23,750 bases of DNA from the IMG/VR virus record IMGVR_UViG_2778261673_000009; one strand, 5' to 3'. This DNA is from a virus. Lineage: Duplodnaviria > Heunggongvirae > Uroviricota > Caudoviricetes. The notes under the pieces were generated by a model that ran no database searches, was not told the DNA's origin, and worked only from the letters and a program-made list of their open reading frames with translations. This document shows positions 3,698 through 23,596 of this stretch, piece after piece. A program made the position numbers and the translations under genes. Position 1 is the first letter of the stretch; each line of letters begins with the position of its first letter.

Positions 3698-3832
3698 TTG
3701 CTTTCCTCCCTGTGACAGATGACTGCATTCCGTGCCGGTTGCATTAACTGATAAGGCATATCTGCGTCTCCTGAAGACGTGCGTATCCCTGCGCGAATAC
3801 GCACATTTAATTTTTCGGGTGTCGTTTTTTAA

Positions 3833-4288
3833 TTACAGATAATTGCGGTAACTGTTATCCGGGGTGGTTTCCGGGTCAGGCTCCGTGCGGGGAATTTCCC
3901 GCCATTCCCGCGCCACCGGTGCTGCCCGGCTGACCGGAACAGTGTCCTGCGGGTAAATATCCAGATATTTTTCCCGCCATTTCTGTAATTCCGGGTCTCC
4001 GGCCATTTCTTTCAGTACCGCATGCCGGTTTACGGGGCTGCGTTTAAACAGGTCAGGACGGTCACAGGTAAATTCCCGCAGAAAACGCCCCAGCGGGATG
4101 TCTGTGGTGCGTCCGTCAGCGAGGATACGCACAAGGATACTGAATTTACGGCGGTACGGGTTCCAGACAATGTCCGGGCAGCGGTACGGCATTTCCCACG
4201 GAATACCGTCTTCCAGAATGCCGACCACGGCCACATCGGGAAAACCGGCAGAACGGTAAATCTCACCGGGCTGGGGAAAATCAAACAT
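3833..4288 (-). CDS. P4 orf151-like protein
   Basis: 151-aa ORF in the P4 orf151 position, co-directional with alpha. Confidence 0.6.
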   Translation of the reverse strand: MFDFPQPGEIYRSAGFPDVAVVGILEDGIPWEMPYRCPDIVWNPYRRKFSILVRILADGRTTDIPLGRFLREFTCDRPDLFKRSPVNRHAVLKEMAGDPELQKWREKYLDIYPQDTVPVSRAAPVAREWREIPRTEPDPETTPDNSYRNYL

Positions 4289-4758: not shown

Positions 4759-5156
4759 GATGGCAGCCTCCTGTGAATAGCAAATAACGCTATCGCCGGA
4801 GTTCTCACGCTCGATGGCGATAGCCCAGACGGGGGTGAGAATACCGGCTTCACAGGATACCGGCCAGCCCGGAGGCTGCCCCGCCTGAGCTACCATTGAC
4901 TCTGCGGCATAATGAGCGGACGCGGGCAGGATGCACGGAATGCCATCTGCACGACTGACCACACACCACACCATAATCTGGCGCTCTGTGGCATTGATTG
5001 CGACACAAAAAAAGACGCGTGGCGCGTCATATGTCGCCTGTGAATTGCTCGGGTTCTCACGCCCGGCTGCCGATTTTGCGGCAGCGGAAAAACTATATCC
5101 GCAAATGCCGGAAAAAGGCAAGCCAGAAAAAGGGAGTTTTTGCAGAGCGGGCATCA

Positions 5157-8165: not shown

Positions 8166-8906
8166 CTAGCGTTGCATTTCAGTTACTATGAAATTTTCTT
8201 CTGTAATAGAATTCATTATCTCAAAGTACAATTCTTCAGGTTGAATAAACGCCAACTCTTTGCAAAGGTTGACAATGGTATCACTATAAGTGATACCCAT
8301 CCGAGGATTGAAAAGCTCAAATCTCTTGATGTTTCTTTTGTTTTTTGAGTAAAAGTTTAAAGTGAAATATATTAGCACCTGTCTAAGATCGTAAACACTA
8401 AACTTCCTATCTCCTGATTTTATTTCCACAAGAACATTTGAATAATAAATATCGCCATATGAATTATTTATTACTCCGCATCCATCGAATTGTGGAGACA
8501 CTTCAATTTGGTTTTCCATTCCATATCGAGACAAAATGTTTCTTGCTATTTCCCTTATGGCATTGTACTCAACCATGCTTAAGGGTAGCTTGAAGTTAGA
8601 ACCGTAAGCGAACCGCTGTAGATATTCTTTTGTTTTTTCAAAAACAACCTGAAAATCAGCATTATGGAAGATATCATGTGCTGAAAGAATATTTCTGTCT
8701 AACGAATCATTCTGTATTGCCCTATATAAATTAAATGCGCACTCATTGACAAAGACGTTATTTGACCTATTAGCGCAGTCATCTAGAGGAGGATAAACGT
8801 CCTCGATGAGACTGCCGTTAATGATGCGTATGAAATTATTAGCATTTGGAAGCAATTGATTCCAAAATGAAGTGAATTTTCGAGAAAACGTTAATTCAGA
8901 TATCAT
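8166..8906 (-). CDS. Hypothetical 246-aa protein, partner of the reverse-transcriptase gene; possible PD-(D/E)xK-type nuclease
   Basis: AT-rich ORF whose ATG overlaps the RT stop (ATGA). It contains GDIYYSNVLVEIKSG, that is D-x9-E-x-K. The nuclease reading is motif-level inference only. Confidence 0.6.
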   Translation of the reverse strand: MISELTFSRKFTSFWNQLLPNANNFIRIINGSLIEDVYPPLDDCANRSNNVFVNECAFNLYRAIQNDSLDRNILSAHDIFHNADFQVVFEKTKEYLQRFAYGSNFKLPLSMVEYNAIREIARNILSRYGMENQIEVSPQFDGCGVINNSYGDIYYSNVLVEIKSGDRKFSVYDLRQVLIYFTLNFYSKNKRNIKRFELFNPRMGITYSDTIVNLCKELAFIQPEELYFEIMNSITEENFIVTEMQR

Positions 8907-10531
8907 AGCGCATCCTCAAGATTTCTTGCGGTATGCCTTTTACTTGCCCAATCCCTGTAAATCACCTCTACAAAGTTGAATGTTTTCTTATTATGCTCTC
9001 TCCAGTGCCGTCCTTCATCACCTAAGATGTAACTGGAAACGATCAATAGTCTTCTCTGCAACGGATGCATTGCAGAGAAATTTTTTTTGATATCAGAAAG
9101 CCATGCGTAAGAATTAATTTTTGCCATTGACTGTGTAACTATGTTCTTGACTAAGATGCTTTCTGGATTGTTATTGTATATTTCACTAAGGATTAGGGTG
9201 GATTTTTCTGAATTTTCTTTTGAGAGCATTCGGGCTACATAGGCTAAGTTGAGCTCAGTACTCAAAATATATGAATCTTGTTTAATTAGTGCAGTTATTT
9301 TATCAAGAATAATATCTTTGGTTTCTGTGCTTAATTTTTGCCAGTTGGAGTTAGCTACTTGAATTATAGTTGTAAATATTGGATATAACTCATGCAAGTT
9401 ATTAAACATTACTTTGAAAGCACTACTTATTATTTCATCTGATGTTGCTGAGAATGCCTTTATCAAATGCTTGCTAAAAGATTGGTTAATTTTTGATTTT
9501 TGTAACTCACTACTCAGCATAGCTAACAAGTCAAAATCTTTTAAAGATTCCTTTATCTCTTCATATTCCTCTATCGCATTTGCTGAGTAAGGATCGAATC
9601 TTATAGGAAGACTCATAAATTTAGCCTTCATAGGAGATTCTTCATCTTCATCATTACCATGCAACTTAGCTTTAGTTACTGAAAGGAACTCTTCTTTAGT
9701 AACAATATTGGTTTTTTGTTTCTGTAAAGTTAGCCCTTCATTTTCCATCAGTTTTTTACTAAGCAAAGTTAAAATCTTATGAGCATCCTCTCTAGAGTTA
9801 CAAAAAATAACAAAGTCGTCGACATAACGCTTATAGTTGATTCTATTCATAGACAATAATTTATCAATAGAATCTAGAGCTAGTTCTGCTAATATTCTAG
9901 AGGCAGGACATCCAACTGGTACTCCATATGATTTTGTTTCACTAAATGTCTGTAGTAATTTCTTGATTTTCCCAGAGTAATCTTTATTGGGGTCTACTCT
10001 ATCTAACGCATTTTCTAAACGGTGGTGATAAATACGCGGATAGAAATCTGCTATATCGCATGTAAGTACATACTTTATTTCATCGTTAGAACATTCAGAG
10101 ATACTGTCTTCTTGATATTTTCTCCAAGAGATCTCTTTATCAAAAAGAGAACCATCAGCAAGGTTTGGTTTAAAGCGATATGAATAAACCTGCGTTTTAG
10201 TAGATCTATTCCTTTCAATATCATCAGCGATTTTTAAAACTAACCCAAGAAAAAAAGCATTCCAGAATGGATCAATTTGGGTCGCCCACCTGTAACCATA
10301 ATAACCAATACTTGAAAAGCTATTAATTATGTTTGGTGGAATCTCGATCCTTTTATTTTCAAAGTCATTAAATGTTTGCATTAATGCAGTTTTTACTTTC
10401 TCCTTATCATCTTCAAATAACCGACTTTCAAATGGGTAAGGGAAAATATCTGTATCGCCGTGCTTTATAATATTTTCCAATGCAAGCTCAAAGCAATTTT
10501 CTAGTTTACTACTATCAAACTCGTTACTCAT
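8903..10531 (-). CDS. Reverse-transcriptase-domain protein with a long alpha-helical C-terminal extension (Abi/DRT-like architecture)
   Basis: 542 aa with RT motifs read directly: CDIADFYPRIYHHRL (motif A-like), YGVPVGCPASRILAELAL (motif B-like) and YKRYVDDFVIF (YxDD catalytic motif, encoded near 9811-9822). About 250 C-terminal residues lie beyond the RT core. Strongly AT-rich relative to its neighbours. Confidence 0.85.
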   Translation of the reverse strand: MSNEFDSSKLENCFELALENIIKHGDTDIFPYPFESRLFEDDKEKVKTALMQTFNDFENKRIEIPPNIINSFSSIGYYGYRWATQIDPFWNAFFLGLVLKIADDIERNRSTKTQVYSYRFKPNLADGSLFDKEISWRKYQEDSISECSNDEIKYVLTCDIADFYPRIYHHRLENALDRVDPNKDYSGKIKKLLQTFSETKSYGVPVGCPASRILAELALDSIDKLLSMNRINYKRYVDDFVIFCNSREDAHKILTLLSKKLMENEGLTLQKQKTNIVTKEEFLSVTKAKLHGNDEDEESPMKAKFMSLPIRFDPYSANAIEEYEEIKESLKDFDLLAMLSSELQKSKINQSFSKHLIKAFSATSDEIISSAFKVMFNNLHELYPIFTTIIQVANSNWQKLSTETKDIILDKITALIKQDSYILSTELNLAYVARMLSKENSEKSTLILSEIYNNNPESILVKNIVTQSMAKINSYAWLSDIKKNFSAMHPLQRRLLIVSSYILGDEGRHWREHNKKTFNFVEVIYRDWASKRHTARNLEDAL

Positions 10532-11708
10532 TCACATTCTCCTTAATAAAAATATAATCTGAATACCACTGCATCATATCACGGCGTTTATCAATATATT
10601 GAGCATGATTATACGTACCTCTAATATTATTCTTATCTATATGAGCAAGCTGTATTTCTATCCAAGCCGAATCATATCCTTTTTCGTGGAGGATAGTAGA
10701 TAAGGAATGTCGAAATCCATGACCAGTAAGTTTTCCACCATAACCAATACGCTTGATAACTTGGTTAATACTCGCCTCACTCATAGGCTTGTTCGGATCG
10801 TTCCGCCCCGGAAAAACATAACTATACTTCCCTGTCATCATCTTGAGTTCATTTAGCAAATCTAACGCTTGAGTCGACAAAGGCACAAGGTGTGATCTGC
10901 GCATTTTCATCCTTTCAGCAGGAATTTCCCAAATAGCGTTATCTAAATCAAATTCTGACCATAATGCCGCACGTAATTCGATGGTTCTAACACCTGTAAT
11001 CATGAGCAATTTCGTGGCAATCAGGACAAGCCGACTTCCGGTATATCCGTTTAAGGCGCGAAGAAAATCAGGTATCTCATTAGCCTTTAAGAACGGGAAA
11101 TGATTTGATTGGTGTACATTGAGGGCGCTTGAAAGATCCGCAGCAGGGTTAAACTCAGCCCTTCCAGTAGCAATGGCATAGCGGAAAACTTCTGAGCATC
11201 GCTGCCGAACTTTGCGCATTTTTTCTAATGCACCGCGCTTTTCGATTTTACGCAGCACATTAAGCAGTTCTAGCGGTTTAATCTCTCCCACTGGCCTTGT
11301 TCCCACATAAGGAAAAATGTCGTTCTTAAACGCTTCCATGATGTCTGATGCATATCCCGCCGACCATTTGGTAGACTTCTGTTGATGCCACTCTCTGGCT
11401 ATCTTTTCGAAGGCGTTCTCTGACTCTGTTTGCAGAGCCAGCTTTTGCTCTTTTCGAACCTCACTAGGGTTCTTTCCTTCTGCCACAAGTTTTCGAGCTT
11501 CATCACGACGGGAACGAGCATCAGCAAGAGTGATCGTTGGGTAAACACCAAGCGAGATCATTTTGGGTTTACCGGCATAGCGATAACGAAATCGCCAGCT
11601 TTTACTTCCATTTGGCTCTACAAGTAAAGACAACCCTTGCCCATCCCCAAGTGTATAGGCTTTAGCTTCAGGTTTAGCACGGCGAATCTGCATATCATTT
11701 AGGGGCAT
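10524..11708 (-). CDS. int: P4-family tyrosine integrase
   Basis: 394 aa with a typical P4-type integrase N-terminus (AKPEAKAYTLGDGQGLSLLVEPNGSKSWRFRYRY) and a C-terminal catalytic region (HGFRHSLSTIL...). It is adjacent to the putative att core. The true start may be the second Met, 15 nt downstream. Confidence 0.9.
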   Translation of the reverse strand: MPLNDMQIRRAKPEAKAYTLGDGQGLSLLVEPNGSKSWRFRYRYAGKPKMISLGVYPTITLADARSRRDEARKLVAEGKNPSEVRKEQKLALQTESENAFEKIAREWHQQKSTKWSAGYASDIMEAFKNDIFPYVGTRPVGEIKPLELLNVLRKIEKRGALEKMRKVRQRCSEVFRYAIATGRAEFNPAADLSSALNVHQSNHFPFLKANEIPDFLRALNGYTGSRLVLIATKLLMITGVRTIELRAALWSEFDLDNAIWEIPAERMKMRRSHLVPLSTQALDLLNELKMMTGKYSYVFPGRNDPNKPMSEASINQVIKRIGYGGKLTGHGFRHSLSTILHEKGYDSAWIEIQLAHIDKNNIRGTYNHAQYIDKRRDMMQWYSDYIFIKENVNE

Positions 11709-17984: not shown

Positions 17985-18013
17985 AAAATAACGATTCCGT
18001 TATGTTCCGAGTA

Positions 18014-18062
18014 ATAAAAAGCCCCAGGCTATAAGAGGTTCAATCAACAATAGCAAGGGGCT
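18014..18062 (-). terminator. Terminator-like hairpin preceding the structural-type operon
   Basis: GCCCC(AG)GCTAT...ATAGC(AA)GGGGC stem-loop followed on the minus strand by a T run (plus-strand AAAAA at 18016-18020). It sits between the early-type genes and the capsid-like genes. Confidence 0.3.
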
Positions 18063-18990
18063 TATTTATTTTGTATCGGGCAAAATACATATTGTGATAA
18101 GTCAACTTTGAGGAGGTTTAACGTTATCTCTAAGAATACTTTTATAAATACGCTTAGAGATATGTTAAGGGTGAATAACAGGACCGCAGGAGAAATTGGC
18201 TCTTAGGAGGGGCCAACCCTTTGGAATCTACGATCCTGCTATTCGATGCGGGGGCTAAACCGCTGCCTGTTTTTGCTGTGGATGCAACAAAGTAAGGCTT
18301 TAAGGAATCACTATTCCAATTCTAATCTACTCACAGATCAAATTTTAATAGGATTAACTACACCAACAGTAATCTACCGTTTCAGAAAATCGTTTTTACA
18401 ACCAAAGCTTATAGATCCGCATTCTATAAAACCCGTTTTGCTATCAATATTTCCAAAGTTTATTGCACCATTCTTAGCTAAACTCTCTCTACTTGCGGCT
18501 AACGCTATGCAGATGATAGTTTTTTGACAACAACTTAATAGATTATTCTGTTACTAACTTCCGTCATTAAATAAGAGTTTAATGATGTTAGTAAATAGTT
18601 ATAAAATATAACTATCAGTGTAAGGCTCTTTAATGTTTTCGGACAAAATAAGGAGCTTTAGGATAAGCATAGATGAAAAATAAGAGCGGGAAGGGCAAGG
18701 AGATAACACCTACCCGCTTTTATCAAAATTAAGCACAATGCCTAACAACATTCATCAACACAACGTAGAAACAATCAACAATCAAAGAGGGAGTTATGAT
18801 TATTCTAAAACTTCTTGAGAGATGGAAGGTAATATTTGTTAGAGGTTAATGCCACTCAACCTTTGAGGCTATCACCTTCCATATGCAGGGATTTATGACA
18901 ATAGAAGGATTAACGCCAACTAAAATCTTTTTATCTACCCCTAAAATTATTATATAACAAAATCATTATAAATGCAAATGATTTTCATTA

Positions 18991-19299
18991 TCATTTAGAG
19001 AAAATAGCACTTTTTGCTAAATCATCTACTAATTGCTGAATCTCTTCACTTGCAACCTTTAACGTGGTGGCGATGTCTGTGATGATTTGATTACACTGTT
19101 TTGCATCGTGCTCAGATAGCTTTAAATAGCTCACCAGAGAGATAAAATCGTCAAGGCTTACATTCACCTTCATTAAGCTAATAACGCATTGAGAGAGCGT
19201 GTAATCGCATAAATCTGAATAGGCTTGATTTATTCTTGTTTGTAGTGAGATAGTCAGATCTAAAAGTTGTTCCATTGCATTGCTAATATCTTCTTCCAT
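18991..19299 (-). CDS. Small hypothetical protein (102 aa)
   Basis: ORF whose ATG overlaps the stop of the upstream 67-aa gene (TAATG). Confidence 0.5.
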   Translation of the reverse strand: MEEDISNAMEQLLDLTISLQTRINQAYSDLCDYTLSQCVISLMKVNVSLDDFISLVSYLKLSEHDAKQCNQIITDIATTLKVASEEIQQLVDDLAKSAIFSK

Positions 19300-20319: not shown

Positions 20320-20889
20320 TTAGAATGGTATTGAATCGTATATTTCACTTTTTTCTCTTAGAGATATTATCAGATCGTGAAAAGCCTGTTTCTCAAGATA
20401 GATATTCTTTGAATCTAATGCACGTTTTACAAAATCTTCTGTTTCTTCGTGCGGTGGTTTCTTCTTATCAAGGGAAAGAAGCCAAGTAAAAATTTCGGGC
20501 CGCTCAGGGAACTCTGATTCCTGTGTTTCTTCTTCAACGATGATTTCGGAAACATTCAATATTTCATTAGATTCGTCTTCTTTCTCAGAAGGATCAGGTA
20601 GTGATGATTCTCCTTTTGGAATATCAAGCACTCGATAAAGGTTAGAGCTTCCTGGTCGTGCATCTTTTATAATTAATCCCATTTCGAGCAATTTCTTAAC
20701 CCTTTCTTCTGCTGCTCTTGGTGTTATGCCAAAAACATCGCCTATCTTAGCGTAAGAGGGAAATGCACGATCAAACCCTCTCAAATAGCAGTAAAGGTTT
20801 TTAGCACTATCTGTAAATTTATGCCCGTTTACTTGGCTTATTTTTAGAATCCACATAGGAACTTTTACAAATTGTTCTTCATTAATCAT
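20320..20889 (-). CDS. Putative replication initiator / replisome-organiser with N-terminal winged-helix domain
   Basis: Likely start is the ATG at 20889 (AAGGAG 7 nt upstream; the track ORF begins at a GTG at 20913). N-terminal pattern FVKVPMWILK...SAKNLYCYLRGF...FPSYAKIGDVFGITPRAAEERVKKLLEMGLI is typical of phage and island replication-initiator DNA-binding domains. Acidic C-terminal half. Confidence 0.55.
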   Translation of the reverse strand: MINEEQFVKVPMWILKISQVNGHKFTDSAKNLYCYLRGFDRAFPSYAKIGDVFGITPRAAEERVKKLLEMGLIIKDARPGSSNLYRVLDIPKGESSLPDPSEKEDESNEILNVSEIIVEEETQESEFPERPEIFTWLLSLDKKKPPHEETEDFVKRALDSKNIYLEKQAFHDLIISLREKSEIYDSIPF

Positions 20890-21317: not shown

Positions 21318-21486
21318 TAATTAACCTCCTATTCTATTTGGTTAAAAGAAAAAACACCTTGCAAGCCTTGTTGGGCTTCAAAGTGCGGTGCATTGGTTTA
21401 ATTACTTAGAGGATAAGAATGTTTTCTGTCCCTAATATTACTTTACCACGACTAAAAGCTTTTGTCAACCCCTGGCCATAAAAATA

Positions 21487-21511
21487 TTGATCATTTTCAG
21501 TGTGTTATAAT
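21487..21511 (+). promoter_or_regulatory. Candidate extended -10 promoter (TGTTATAAT) reading rightward into the ORF-poor region
   Basis: TGT-TATAAT at 21503-21511 with TTGATC 13 nt upstream. The upstream hexamer is too close for a standard -35, so the call rests on the extended -10 alone. Confidence 0.3.
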
Positions 21512-21618
21512 TTTTCTTAGCAATTCGTGCTCTTACGAGTGTTCCTATTCTTCCTTATTCTCTAAAACGCTCTAAAACGCGTTCTAACGAGGTATTTGAT
21601 AAAAACAATACATTCCCT

Positions 21619-21656
21619 TATGTAGAGGTTGTTTAGCTCGCCAGAGGCTTATTTAA
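21619..21656. repeat. Repeated element, copy 1 (GTTTAGCTCGCC-N3-GGCTT-ATTTAAG-GGG)
   Basis: GTTTAGCTCGCCAGAGGCTTATTTAAGGGG recurs at 21797-21832. The tail AAGGGGCTTATTT..TTGTAT also recurs at 18052-18076. Confidence 0.5.
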
Positions 21657-21796
21657 GGGGCTTATTTTGTATTTGTTAGGTATATGAAAAGGAGATGATA
21701 GATAAAATCTAATTTCAGACATCTTATAAAATACCTGTAAAGCTCTCAGAAGCTCTGTAACGAGCTAATCTATTACCGCTAAGTGTTTCCCTGCCT

Positions 21797-21832
21797 TATA
21801 TACGTTTAGCTCGCCTACGGCTTGATTTAAGC
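21797..21832. repeat. Repeated element, copy 2
   Basis: GTTTAGCTCGCCTACGGCTTGATTTAAGCGG, a direct repeat of 21619-21656 with few mismatches. Confidence 0.5.
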
Positions 21833-22301
21833 GGTAGAATCTTATTTAACCTTCAACTACTAAAACCATTCTTTCTTTTTTGTTTGTTGTTGGTTGTTGT
21901 CTGTGTCTATGTGCTAACATCGCTAACGCGTAGCACACAAGGTTATTGCACAAGTAAATTTCAATCGTTAGATGGTAGTTAGTTAATTATCGTTCTGCGC
22001 ACAGCGCAAGACTATTTAGCCTTACGCAAGCCGTAGGCTATTTGCACATAGTAGATTACATATTCGTTGTGAGCGGCATTAGCGAACATAGATCTACTAA
22101 CTAACATCAACAAACAAAAACTATGTGTTATGACAAGCAGTCTAACGACTAACACTCTAACTTGTGCAAGGTTCTGGCGAATGCCAATAGATTAAGGGAT
22201 AGTCAAGGACTCCCCTAACGGGTACCCCTATAATTATTCTTTAAAGATAAAAGAATTTATAAAAGATAATTTAATTGTAGTTTGATAGTTGATCTAATAG
22301 G

Positions 22302-22435
22302 TAACAAAATTCTGTAGGGGTGGCTAACAGTTTTCTGTGGGGGTGTATAACATAATTCTGTTAGGGTTGGGGTAACAGTTTTCTGTTAGGGTGCATATTT
22401 CTTTAAAAGTTAAGGATAACAGAATTCTGTGGGGG
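22302..22435. repeat. Iteron array: five 19-bp direct repeats TAACA-N3-TTCTGT-N-GGG(G), each with an internal ACAG-N4-CTGT dyad
   Basis: Units start at 22302, 22325, 22348, 22373 and 22417, giving spacings of 23, 23, 25 and 44 bp. The unit at 22417 contains the perfect palindrome ACAGAATTCTGT. Putative origin of the second element. Confidence 0.6.
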
Positions 22436-23262
22436 TAGTTCACAGTGACCTACCGTTACATCCATTTATCACATAACATCTGTGCAATGATCTTCTAAAA
22501 GTGTTTCTTGCTACCAAAATTAAACATCTAAAACAGGCTTAAATTCAAGATTAATTGATGATTAATCCTTATGTAATTCCATACTAAAAATTCAATGAAA
22601 AGTAGCTTAAAAGTGCAATTCTTACTTTCTTCACTTTTACATCACTTTCGCAAAGCCTTGTGTAATGCGGCTTACAGAGCACTATCAGAAATTGTTGATT
22701 AAAAATCAATCTATTATTTGTCGAACAAGTTTCTTTCACGTGTTGAAAATTTATGTTTAAATTTGCTTTCAATCTTTAATGTGCAATCACTATCAACATA
22801 AAAATAAAAACCTTCTATTATATTTCATAGCATACAAAAGTCAATAGAAGCCCTCTCGTGCTCCTACGTAAAAAATCCACCACTTTTCCCCTGATACATC
22901 AACTCAAGGCGTTCTATGTGTTCCTTAGTGCATATTACGATTATTATGTTAAATGGATTTTGGCCTATATTTTGACCTGCACCCGCATAAACACTGGTTT
23001 CATCGCTTACAGCCCTTGTGAGACGTGGTGCTGTTTCTAGCATCTGATCCGACATAAAACCGATCATTCTCGTGTTTAGTGAAAGTTTAGTGAGAGACAT
23101 TACAGAAAGGCTTTCTGTGTAATGATTTAATAGGTAAAAACGATGTTGATTACGCAAGAAAATTCCTTGCTGATATTTGGGGATTCTGGATTTTCCAGAT
23201 CGGGGGGCGCTAAAAATCGCGTTAAGCACCTCTCGCAATCTAGCCATAAGGGAAGGGATATA

Positions 23263-23305
23263 GGTATTTAGATGTATTTATAGCTATTTATGGCTATTTA
23301 TTTTT
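23263..23305. repeat. Four tandem copies of a roughly 10-bp AT-rich unit (nnTATTTAnn)
   Basis: GTATTTAGA TGTATTTATA GCTATTTATG GCTATTTATT, at helical-repeat spacing. A nearby pair CCCTTAAATCCCC / GCCTTAAATACCCC lies at about 23393-23430. Confidence 0.4.
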
Positions 23306-23596
23306 TATTTACCTTTATTAAAAAATAACCTTATAAATCAATAAGATACAGAGCTATCTGTTTATATTTTAATCAATTAAATCAAGTTTAATACCCTTAA
23401 ATCCCCTGAAAATAGCCTTAAATACCCCAATAATTAATTTTAAGGTTTTCCGTGTTCTCTTCTGCATTATGAAAATGCAAAATAAGGCACAAAACAAGCT
23501 CACAGACGCATTAAACACACATCACCTATGCATCCCTATACCAAGCAATGAAAACAGCGTTAGAATGCGTCCTGTTGCGTTCTGGAGATTTTCAGA

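Follow-up and report, generated by a model that had tools for sequence, protein, structure and literature searches.

A gene-free stretch of a phage-satellite-like island in Escherichia coli: a probable replication-and-control module with a conserved folded domain

Why would a mobile element of about 12 kb keep more than 2 kb of DNA that seems to encode no protein? The question is raised by positions 21320–23470 of a 23,750-nt stretch of DNA (IMG/VR virus record IMGVR_UViG_2778261673_000009), the whole of which we call 'the window'. The window is E. coli chromosome adjoining the tRNA-Thr gene thrW and proA, and carries two elements in tandem; the region analysed here belongs to the second, where it lies between a 60-amino-acid (aa) gene of the early operon and, at the end of the window, a gene of 52 aa. 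A survey of 5,426 complete E. coli genomes found similar DNA in 741 of them (about one in seven), nearly always on the chromosome, yet these gene-free 2–3 kb have been left blank, which is reason to annotate them. An earlier description made without database searches (the sequence-only reading) took the region for the element's replication origin and control region, possibly also encoding a non-coding RNA. From comparison with relatives we conclude that it is probably the replication-and-control module of a satellite-like island at thrW, with a structured transcript acting in cis.

That the region holds no convincing protein gene, as had been claimed, stood up to comparison. Its largest open reading frame (ORF), of 127 aa on the minus strand (22864–23247), is interrupted by a frameshift or stop in 11 of the 25 distinct homologues compared, and variable sites in this set are spread 9/9/11 over the codon positions with no third-position bias; it has no match in Pfam or PHROG. 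There are 742 matching E. coli records, and among the matches listed only a few annotations ('hypothetical protein', IS3 transposase or recombinase) lie under the match. A tRNA/tmRNA scan found none. At the corresponding position all relatives, across genera, have 1.7–3.0 kb without an annotated gene. What the region does hold is repeats: all five classes described earlier, as well as the promoter-like site, were found where they had been placed.

An iteron origin should combine at least three direct repeats of ~17–25 bp in helical phase with an AT-rich unwinding region and a cognate initiator. The window has the five-unit array that had been noted: a 20-nt iteron, TAACAGnnTTCTGTnGGGGT (type A), occurs five times on the plus strand at 22302–22436, spaced 23, 23, 25 and 44 nt. 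Directly left of it lies an AT-rich stretch (22240–22301; 84% A+T, the value also found at 22250–22299), a candidate unwinding element with GATCTAATA (GATC at 22291), which several versions keep upstream of their iterons; parts of 22500–22850 reach 70–80% A+T. The candidate initiator, Rep, is a 189-aa protein (20320–20889, minus strand) with hits (E 1e-8 to 1e-5) to replication-initiator and O-like families in PHROG.

Array and protein change together. We catalogued eight iteron types (A–H), all with a period of ~22–24 bp and an internal dyad, and counted co-variation over 74 loci in five clusters of the Rep N-terminal domain. Cluster 1 goes with iteron type A in 30 of 31 loci, cluster 2 with type C in 12 of 18, cluster 3 with type D in 10 of 14, cluster 4 with type B in all eight and cluster 5 with type F in all three; Rep C-terminal halves are common to different N-terminal types. 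In relatives L003 and L004, the iteron block (22286–22445) and the DNA for the Rep N-terminal domain (~20613–20889) have been swapped together, with flanks 94–99% identical. In Franconibacter, only the iteron block of the non-coding stretch aligns by blastn, and the N-terminal half of Rep is 87% identical. (A genome-collection scan with Rep gave only three loci; a metagenome scan with the 56-aa protein encoded between Rep and the 60-aa protein was far more productive.) On this evidence the five iterons are almost certainly Rep binding sites, co-variation pointing to Rep as the cognate initiator. The origin assignment of the sequence-only reading is borne out to the extent that comparison allows: with strong comparative evidence from co-variation and an AT-rich flank, we consider it very likely correct.

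Rightward of the array, a conserved right arm of the putative origin module (22445–22736) is AT-rich, carries an integration host factor (IHF) consensus at 22704 and a block, ATTTGTCGAACaAGTTTC, and is 76–97% identical in relatives regardless of iteron type; its blocks are common to Franconibacter and metagenome versions. At its left edge, pattern matches to single copies of other iteron types, set against the full arrays of L006 and L007, appear on the plus strand at 22434–22460 as remnants (TTCACAGTGACCTACC of type C, and GTTACAT, a type B half-site). On the minus strand of the right arm, several divergent relatives have by our reading a 17–22-codon ORF starting with ATG (MKVLIVDNDRCEPHGVRL, MKVYIVHNECCKPCVVRFPHKG, MKVVCHNKQPYKPRYSCI), found at ~8960–9020 of L005 (in window orientation) and in L083 and L089. 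It corresponds to window positions 22640–22700, where the ATG is missing, and coincides in part with a conserved AAGCC...GGCTT hairpin; what is conserved may be a micro-peptide or else the hairpin of an RNA.

The second line of evidence concerns the DNA to the left of the iterons. Every relative keeps the motif GCGCACAGCGCAA (21997–22009 in the window) between the rightward promoter described below and the iterons, and the sequence around it is rich in hairpins and comes in several versions. Divergent versions were obtained through the metagenome scan anchored on the 56-aa protein, and 14 divergent sequences were aligned with MAFFT with no structure as guide. RNAalifold together with reading of this alignment gave four helices with 29 pairs, at which 91.8% of cells are paired, compared with 25–36% when the 3' partner is slid. 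Nine pairs have changed on both sides, a number reached by one of 500 shuffles, and the covariation score of 0.241, against 0.134, was reached by none of 500. Whole stems have been replaced with pairing retained: by reading, stem S1 is AATTACAC/GTGTAATT, ACCGT/ACGGT or ACTGG/CCAGT, and stem S2 is CTCTAC/GTAGAG or CTGACT/AGTCAG, while hairpin extensions are either wholly there or wholly absent among versions. No consistent seed structure could be written, because MAFFT placed the outer helix of S2 and the sub-domain at the 3' end in registers that differ between versions; only helices that MAFFT aligned on its own were counted, which makes the pair counts conservative. Covariance analysis across homologous elements, which had been proposed beforehand, thus found compensatory changes in excess of controls.

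The fold also has a strand. Among the aligned cells there are 38 G·U and 6 A·C, and therefore the folded strand is the plus strand, read from the rightward promoter toward the iterons; one U·G wobble is kept in 13 of 14 sequences, and tandem G·A pairs and GNNA loops occur as well. At all 93 loci with the exact motif its orientation is the same. Rfam 15, searched at E ≤ 1 with 21320–23470 and with the corresponding regions of three relatives (L005, L006 and L016), gave no hit. We regard a conserved, strand-specific fold as very probably real, from covariation in the relatives and, for the window, by homology. Action as RNA we consider more likely than not, transcription being predicted from one feature, the conserved promoter-like site of the right polarity; to that extent, covariation in relatives and a strand-specific fold downstream of a candidate promoter lend weight to the possible non-coding RNA of the earlier description.

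The window's own version of the domain (V1) appears to be a reduced one. The segment bounded by inverted repeats had been noted before, and it exists: arms at 21877–21898 and 22099–22120 form the ends of a 244-bp segment. To call the repeats perfect was an overstatement, because the 22-nt arms are 86% complementary and only their outer 13 nt (TTTTTGTTTGTTG / CAACAAACAAAAA) fully so. This segment is best read as the reduced local version of the conserved hairpin-rich domain, its core (21877–22120, plus strand) having the two arms as closing helix of the predicted fold. Within it, all on the plus strand, are an S3-like hairpin (~21950–21995), the invariant hairpin GCGC-ACA-GCGC inside GCGCACAGCGCAA (21997–22009), a hairpin at 22017–22040, the heptamer TTGCACA (22042–22048) and a hairpin UUCGUU-GUGAGCGGCAUU-AGCGAA (22063–22086), which by reading is the counterpart of the ACGCU...AGCGU helix, in other versions the closing helix of a larger sub-domain. 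The V1 plus strand folds at -72 kcal/mol (z -3.7), and nhmmer profiles built from non-V1 relatives only find the window at 21991–22078 (E 1.3e-6) and 21963–22009 (E 8.4e-6).

The domain keeps its place relative to the iterons even where the genes around it differ. Its 5' landmark in the module is a box, AAAACGCTCT (21560–21593, plus strand), which consists of the tandem pair recognized earlier, CTCTAAAACG (2.1 copies at 21560–21580, 100% match), and CGCGTTCTAACGAGG, and which is kept in E. coli, Franconibacter and metagenome relatives. In L119–L121, which are IMG/VR contigs with baseplate and tail-fibre genes as well, the box, the structured domain, iterons and the right block follow in this order, on the same strand, downstream of an unrelated 153-aa winged-helix gene (the unit spans 1039–2200 in L119). 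The unit is therefore common to different kinds of mobile element, and since its gene neighbourhood there is a different one, the domain goes with the iterons rather than the early operon. When the L119 version was compared with phage and plasmid collections in a distant DNA search, nothing matched; for the window region, only short matches in phages and partial ones in two plasmid-collection records came up. A scan of viral contigs for GCGCACAGCGCAA...TGAGCGG returned mostly near-identical E. coli versions and six chance matches. To the right of the box, the two copies of a ~35-nt element reported earlier were found again on the plus strand, at 21631–21667 and 21804–21849 (pattern search: two matches, none expected), and its partial copy near 18050 is real by reading (18054–18078, AAGGGGCTTATTTATTTTGTAT). 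The copies lie 173 nt apart within 21631–21849, and this 173-nt unit is a presence/absence polymorphism, some relatives having it and others not.

Divergent promoter-like sites stand at the left end of the region, back to back at 21440–21511, with both positions conserved. The leftward site (21440–21468, minus strand), TTGACA-17-TAAAGT with TG, scored 10 of 12 matches in a promoter scan, would serve the early operon, and keeps its -35 TTGACA in relatives. The rightward site is the extended -10 proposed earlier (21503–21511, plus strand), TGtTATAAT, which by reading is a perfect match and points into the non-coding region; the consensus scan overlooked it because it has no -35. Relatives have TATAAT, TATGAT or TACATT at this position, followed by invariant TTTTTCTTAGC. 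Between the leftward promoter and the start of the 60-aa gene (21317), just ahead of the ribosome site, the leader contains an intrinsic terminator on the minus strand (21344–21386), a 13-bp hairpin (21355–21386) with a U-run (21344–21354); the minus-strand RNA fold of 21318–21433 gives GCACUUUGAAGCC-loop-GGCUUGCAAGGUG followed by UUUUUUCUUUU, and the leader of L006 has the same hairpin with a different loop. A terminator in this position suggests that early expression is gated, and should need read-through or antitermination. The earlier notion of a control region is supported by what directly precedes the early operon, namely divergent putative promoters and, in the leader, a conserved terminator.

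We propose that these parts work together as follows. The leftward promoter would drive the early operon (60-aa gene, 56-aa gene, rep and following genes) through the leader that ends in the terminator, and the rightward promoter would transcribe the hairpin-rich domain, ~0.3–0.7 kb in size, toward the origin. Its fold is retained while its sequence drifts, the window having a reduced version inside the 22-nt inverted repeat. The winged-helix N-terminal domain of Rep, as co-variation suggests, would bind the five 20-nt iterons and open the origin at the AT-rich, GATC-bearing stretch. The structured transcript may be a pre-primer or R-loop former like RNA II of ColE1, or a cofactor for opening or priming; a role in cis in replication is suggested because box, domain, iterons and right arm move as a unit across gene contexts. 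The rightmost parts are the conserved AT-rich right arm and, beyond it and outside the origin, an exchangeable decayed cassette. The repeats, the lack of coding capacity, the co-variation of Rep and iterons, the strand-specific covariation and the linkage of the module are observations; transcription, binding by Rep, origin firing and the RNA's role are what we infer from them. More generally, and tentatively, there might be a hitherto undescribed class of large (~0.3–0.7 kb) multi-helix RNAs obligatory in cis at iteron origins, forming a portable cassette of a new, widespread family of satellite-like islands in E. coli and other enterobacteria. If so, such origins would be a hybrid of the ColE1 RNA II principle and Rep/iteron initiation, and iteron specificities would diversify within the family, possibly under attack by helper phages.

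Several findings weigh against this proposal. On the protein side, Rep exceeds no Pfam threshold, with sub-threshold hits to HTH_36 and HTH_24 only, and a solved-structure search with Rep gave no relative. On the DNA side, a scan found no DnaA box at ≤ 1 mismatch and a single IHF consensus, that at 22704, and the presence in some relatives of several iteron arrays of other types is not explained by an origin with one Rep and one array. As regards the fold, V1 lacks S1 and S2, the two best-supported helices, and rests on homology and energy since there is little sequence variation within it; moreover, the two strands of the inverted-repeat segment differ little in how well they fold. As regards the transcript, the rightward promoter has no -35 and is the weaker TACATT in V2 relatives, and we found no terminator at the 3' end of the domain. 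Finally, single-stranded DNA also tolerates G·T pairs, and so the strand bias is no proof of RNA.

The last point leads to an alternative that we think unlikely, namely that the hairpin-rich plus strand acts as single-stranded DNA, its hairpins being priming or primosome signals that load DnaG or PriA/DnaB at the opened origin. G4-type and phiX174-type single-strand initiation (ssi) sites adjoin the origins of R1, F and ColE1. A strand-specific fold at fixed orientation and distance to the iterons in every context would suit such a signal, as would the lack of a terminator bounding the domain and of a recognizable helicase loader or primase in the element; the Rep tail (..DFDIPF or ..YDSIPF) is also like the C-terminal tip of the single-stranded DNA-binding protein (SSB) that binds PriA, DnaG and chi. 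However, known ssi signals are 60–150 nt long, whereas the domain here has several hundred nucleotides and many helices; the U·G wobble conserved in 13 of 14 sequences, the tandem G·A pairs, GNNA loops and 38 G·U cells speak rather for RNA, and so do the conserved promoter of right polarity upstream and, in L119–L121, a gene that reads into the domain.

Alternatively, the structured transcript could be a regulatory RNA acting in trans in satellite–helper conflict, like SviR of the Vibrio satellite PLE or the immunity RNAs P4 CI / P1 C4, with its linkage to the origin incidental, which we also consider improbable. Satellites do encode such RNAs in ORF-less regions with flanking inverted repeats, the rightward promoter is divergent to that of the early operon, a place usual for a repressor gene but here without a repressor ORF, and the leader terminator of the early operon would make a possible target. 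Sixteen nucleotides at 22227–22242 could even pair upstream of the ribosome site of the 56-aa gene, but two-copy repeats such as this match are often products of chance. Seed-type small RNAs (sRNAs) are unlike the domain in size and in the ornateness of its fold, and the domain stays beside the iterons even where the neighbouring genes differ.

Two further explanations are very improbable. Although the 244-bp segment is flanked by inverted repeats and many relatives have, in the same non-coding region, a 179-aa resolvase/invertase-type gene that might flip it, an invertible switch of the Hin/Gin/Fim type is ruled out by the uniform orientation of its internal motif (93 loci against none inverted); the window has neither a recombinase nor a remnant of one (tblastn with the serine recombinase, the 183-aa protein described below and other relatives' genes found none), in relatives the recombinase lies ~1 kb away, and the arms, G/T-rich against A/C-rich, are unlike hix/gix sites. 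As for functionless decayed coding DNA, pseudogenes with chance repeats, the right third does resemble decayed or exchangeable cargo, but for 21320–22740 this is contradicted by a gene-free stretch of 1.7–3.0 kb kept in all relatives across genera and by the signs of selection in iteron–Rep co-variation and compensatory changes.

We therefore return to the proposed cis-acting replication-and-control module, and to further observations on Rep and its sites. Where several iteron arrays coexist, a single Rep accompanies them: L006 (E. coli O26:H11 11368, whose structured domain is of the V2 version) has at 10180–10720 five to seven type C copies, four of E, two of D, one of A and two or three of B, and L007 has at 10210–10480 five D and five C. 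Such orphan arrays could be exchange relics, decoys or sites for Reps of co-resident elements. All Rep variants (window C-terminus, 20320–20350; L006, L007, L017) end in ..YDSIPF, ..EDFDIPF or ..EEDDFDIPF. This end resembles the C-terminal tip of E. coli SSB, ..DFDDDIPF, which recruits PriA, DnaG, chi and other partners; the Rep tail may likewise recruit host replication proteins for a small initiator without a loader.

The right third of the region (~22780–23470) is a separate, variable, decayed cassette and not part of the origin. This non-coding cassette (22780–23480) includes the decayed 127-aa ORF, a strong leftward promoter-like site found by the promoter scan (TTGACT-16-TATAAT, 22844–22817, minus strand) and the AT-rich tandem repeats reported earlier, which are two period-10 arrays (23259–23301, 4.3 copies; 23390–23427, 3.7 copies). 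Part of it (~22750–23170) is replaced in many relatives by a gene for a resolvase/invertase-type serine recombinase of 179–183 aa (L007 11130–11669; L008 10978–11517; also L014, L016 and L017); others have the cassette and then an extra 183-aa gene whose product has a signal-peptide-like N-terminus (L001 22348–22899). The cassette also contains a 46-nt match (23199–23244) to phi92-like phages, with weaker similarity from ~23163. It is 43–46 nt long and ~95% identical (megablast pieces 93–100%) in the Justusliebigvirus phages PD114, PaulScherrer, 92CQ and KKE7M, and 85% identical in Citrobacter phage Tr1; on the phage side (L009 322–364, L010 4004–4045, L011 4001–4046) it lies in an extensive stretch without genes, ahead of the first early genes. 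The common stretch may be a regulatory or packaging signal, and thus a hint to the helper phage.

Of the two elements in tandem, the first (bases 1 to ~11800) is a P4-like satellite at the same site, with a 777-aa primase, sid/delta/psu-like genes, an a1/b1 target, a C4 antisense RNA (4813–4900), an isrK RNA (5008–5085) and its own integrase (10524–11708). Its cargo slot (8166–10531) holds a 542-aa reverse transcriptase and a 246-aa gene, presumably a defence system. The second, the island of ~12 kb that concerns us, runs from ~11900 to past the window end, the tRNA-Thr gene lying ~600 nt beyond it. Its integrase gene is on the plus strand. The minus strand encodes a Dit-like tail protein, a tape-measure-like protein of 613 aa, a lambda-E-type major capsid protein of 342 aa and several small ORFs, followed by Rep and the 56-aa and 60-aa genes; no portal, protease or terminase was recognizable among its genes. 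Nearly all island genes are annotated as 'hypothetical', the small early proteins have no match in Pfam, and in the literature searched we found no paper on this island family or its folded RNA-like domain. Relatives are attached at thrW, at a tRNA-Gly gene or near thiM. Taken together, the second island looks like a member of an undescribed phage-satellite-like family.

The island has a second gap of ~1 kb without a convincing gene (17985–18990), between the early genes and the capsid/tail genes, with a terminator-like hairpin, AAGCCCC...GGGGCTT plus a T-run, at ~18018–18075 and the partial copy of the ~35-nt element; this gap could serve the late operon as a long, regulated leader. At the head of this gap, by reading, a Fur-box-like motif (ATGCAAATGATTTTCATTATCA, 18940–18996) overlaps a strong minus-strand promoter-like site, TTGCAT-17-TATAAT. 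A near-identical motif was read twice in the intergenic region of phage PaulScherrer (L010 ~3755–3785 and ~3940–3975), just upstream of the 46-nt match.

Beyond annotation, a Rep and iteron replicon with at least five natural specificity pairs offers possible orthogonal origin–initiator pairs and a model for the evolution of origin specificity. Through its tie to an origin, the candidate new family of structured RNAs is relevant to the question of how a small initiator that lacks a helicase loader can begin replication, and the leader terminator and the phi92-like stretch are entry points to how the element may sense its helper phage.

How does this module compare with known systems? GOLLD and ROOL are large structured RNAs on mobile phage-related elements, and both are in Rfam. 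The present domain may be likened to them as a multi-helix non-coding domain of several hundred nucleotides on such an element; in contrast to them it has no Rfam match, and it is always tied to an iteron array. At ori-lambda, bound by lambda O, and at plasmid iteron origins, phased ~20-bp dyad repeats lie beside an AT-rich stretch, with a winged-helix initiator and transcription toward the origin. The present module seems to resemble them in repeats, AT-rich neighbour, initiator and predicted direction of transcription, whereas its iterons lie outside rep, ~1.4 kb upstream and beyond a divergent promoter, and it has no lambda-P-like loader and no DnaA boxes. ColE1, under the control of the antisense RNA I, manages without Rep and iterons; its pre-primer RNA II, several hundred nucleotides long and highly folded, starts hundreds of nucleotides ahead of the origin and extends into it. 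The transcript predicted here would be like RNA II in size, folding and direction, by analogy and not by homology (no Rfam match).

The closest analogue appears to be the non-coding region of the Vibrio cholerae satellite PLE, an ORF-less region of 2.7 kb with four repeat types that contains the ori, where RepA binds semi-palindromic iterons and exchange has affected the ori jointly with the DNA-binding domain of RepA (PMC7145576, PMC8263062). An ORF-less PLE region with flanking inverted repeats also encodes the sRNA SviR (10.1101/2022.04.08.487710). In setting, SviR is like the candidate RNA here: its gene, too, belongs to a satellite and occupies an intergenic region devoid of ORFs, with inverted repeats on either side. 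SviR, however, is a terminator-bounded base-pairing regulator of ~210 nt, whereas here the inverted repeats seem to close the fold itself as a helix, and we found no terminator. PLE and the present island have no sequence relation: PLE RepA is of the RepA_N type, a domain that Pfam does not find in the present Rep, which matches lambda-O-like PHROGs. Here there are at least five Rep/iteron pairings, eight iteron types and, in some elements, several arrays, and a conserved large fold is not described for the PLE region in the cited PLE papers. What they have in common is the plan: a small integrative satellite, an ORF-less region of more than 2 kb with several repeat families, and an initiator whose exchangeable N-terminal DNA-binding domain co-varies with the ori while its C-terminal domain is conserved. 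By this analogy, the present island would work like PLE without being a member of that group.

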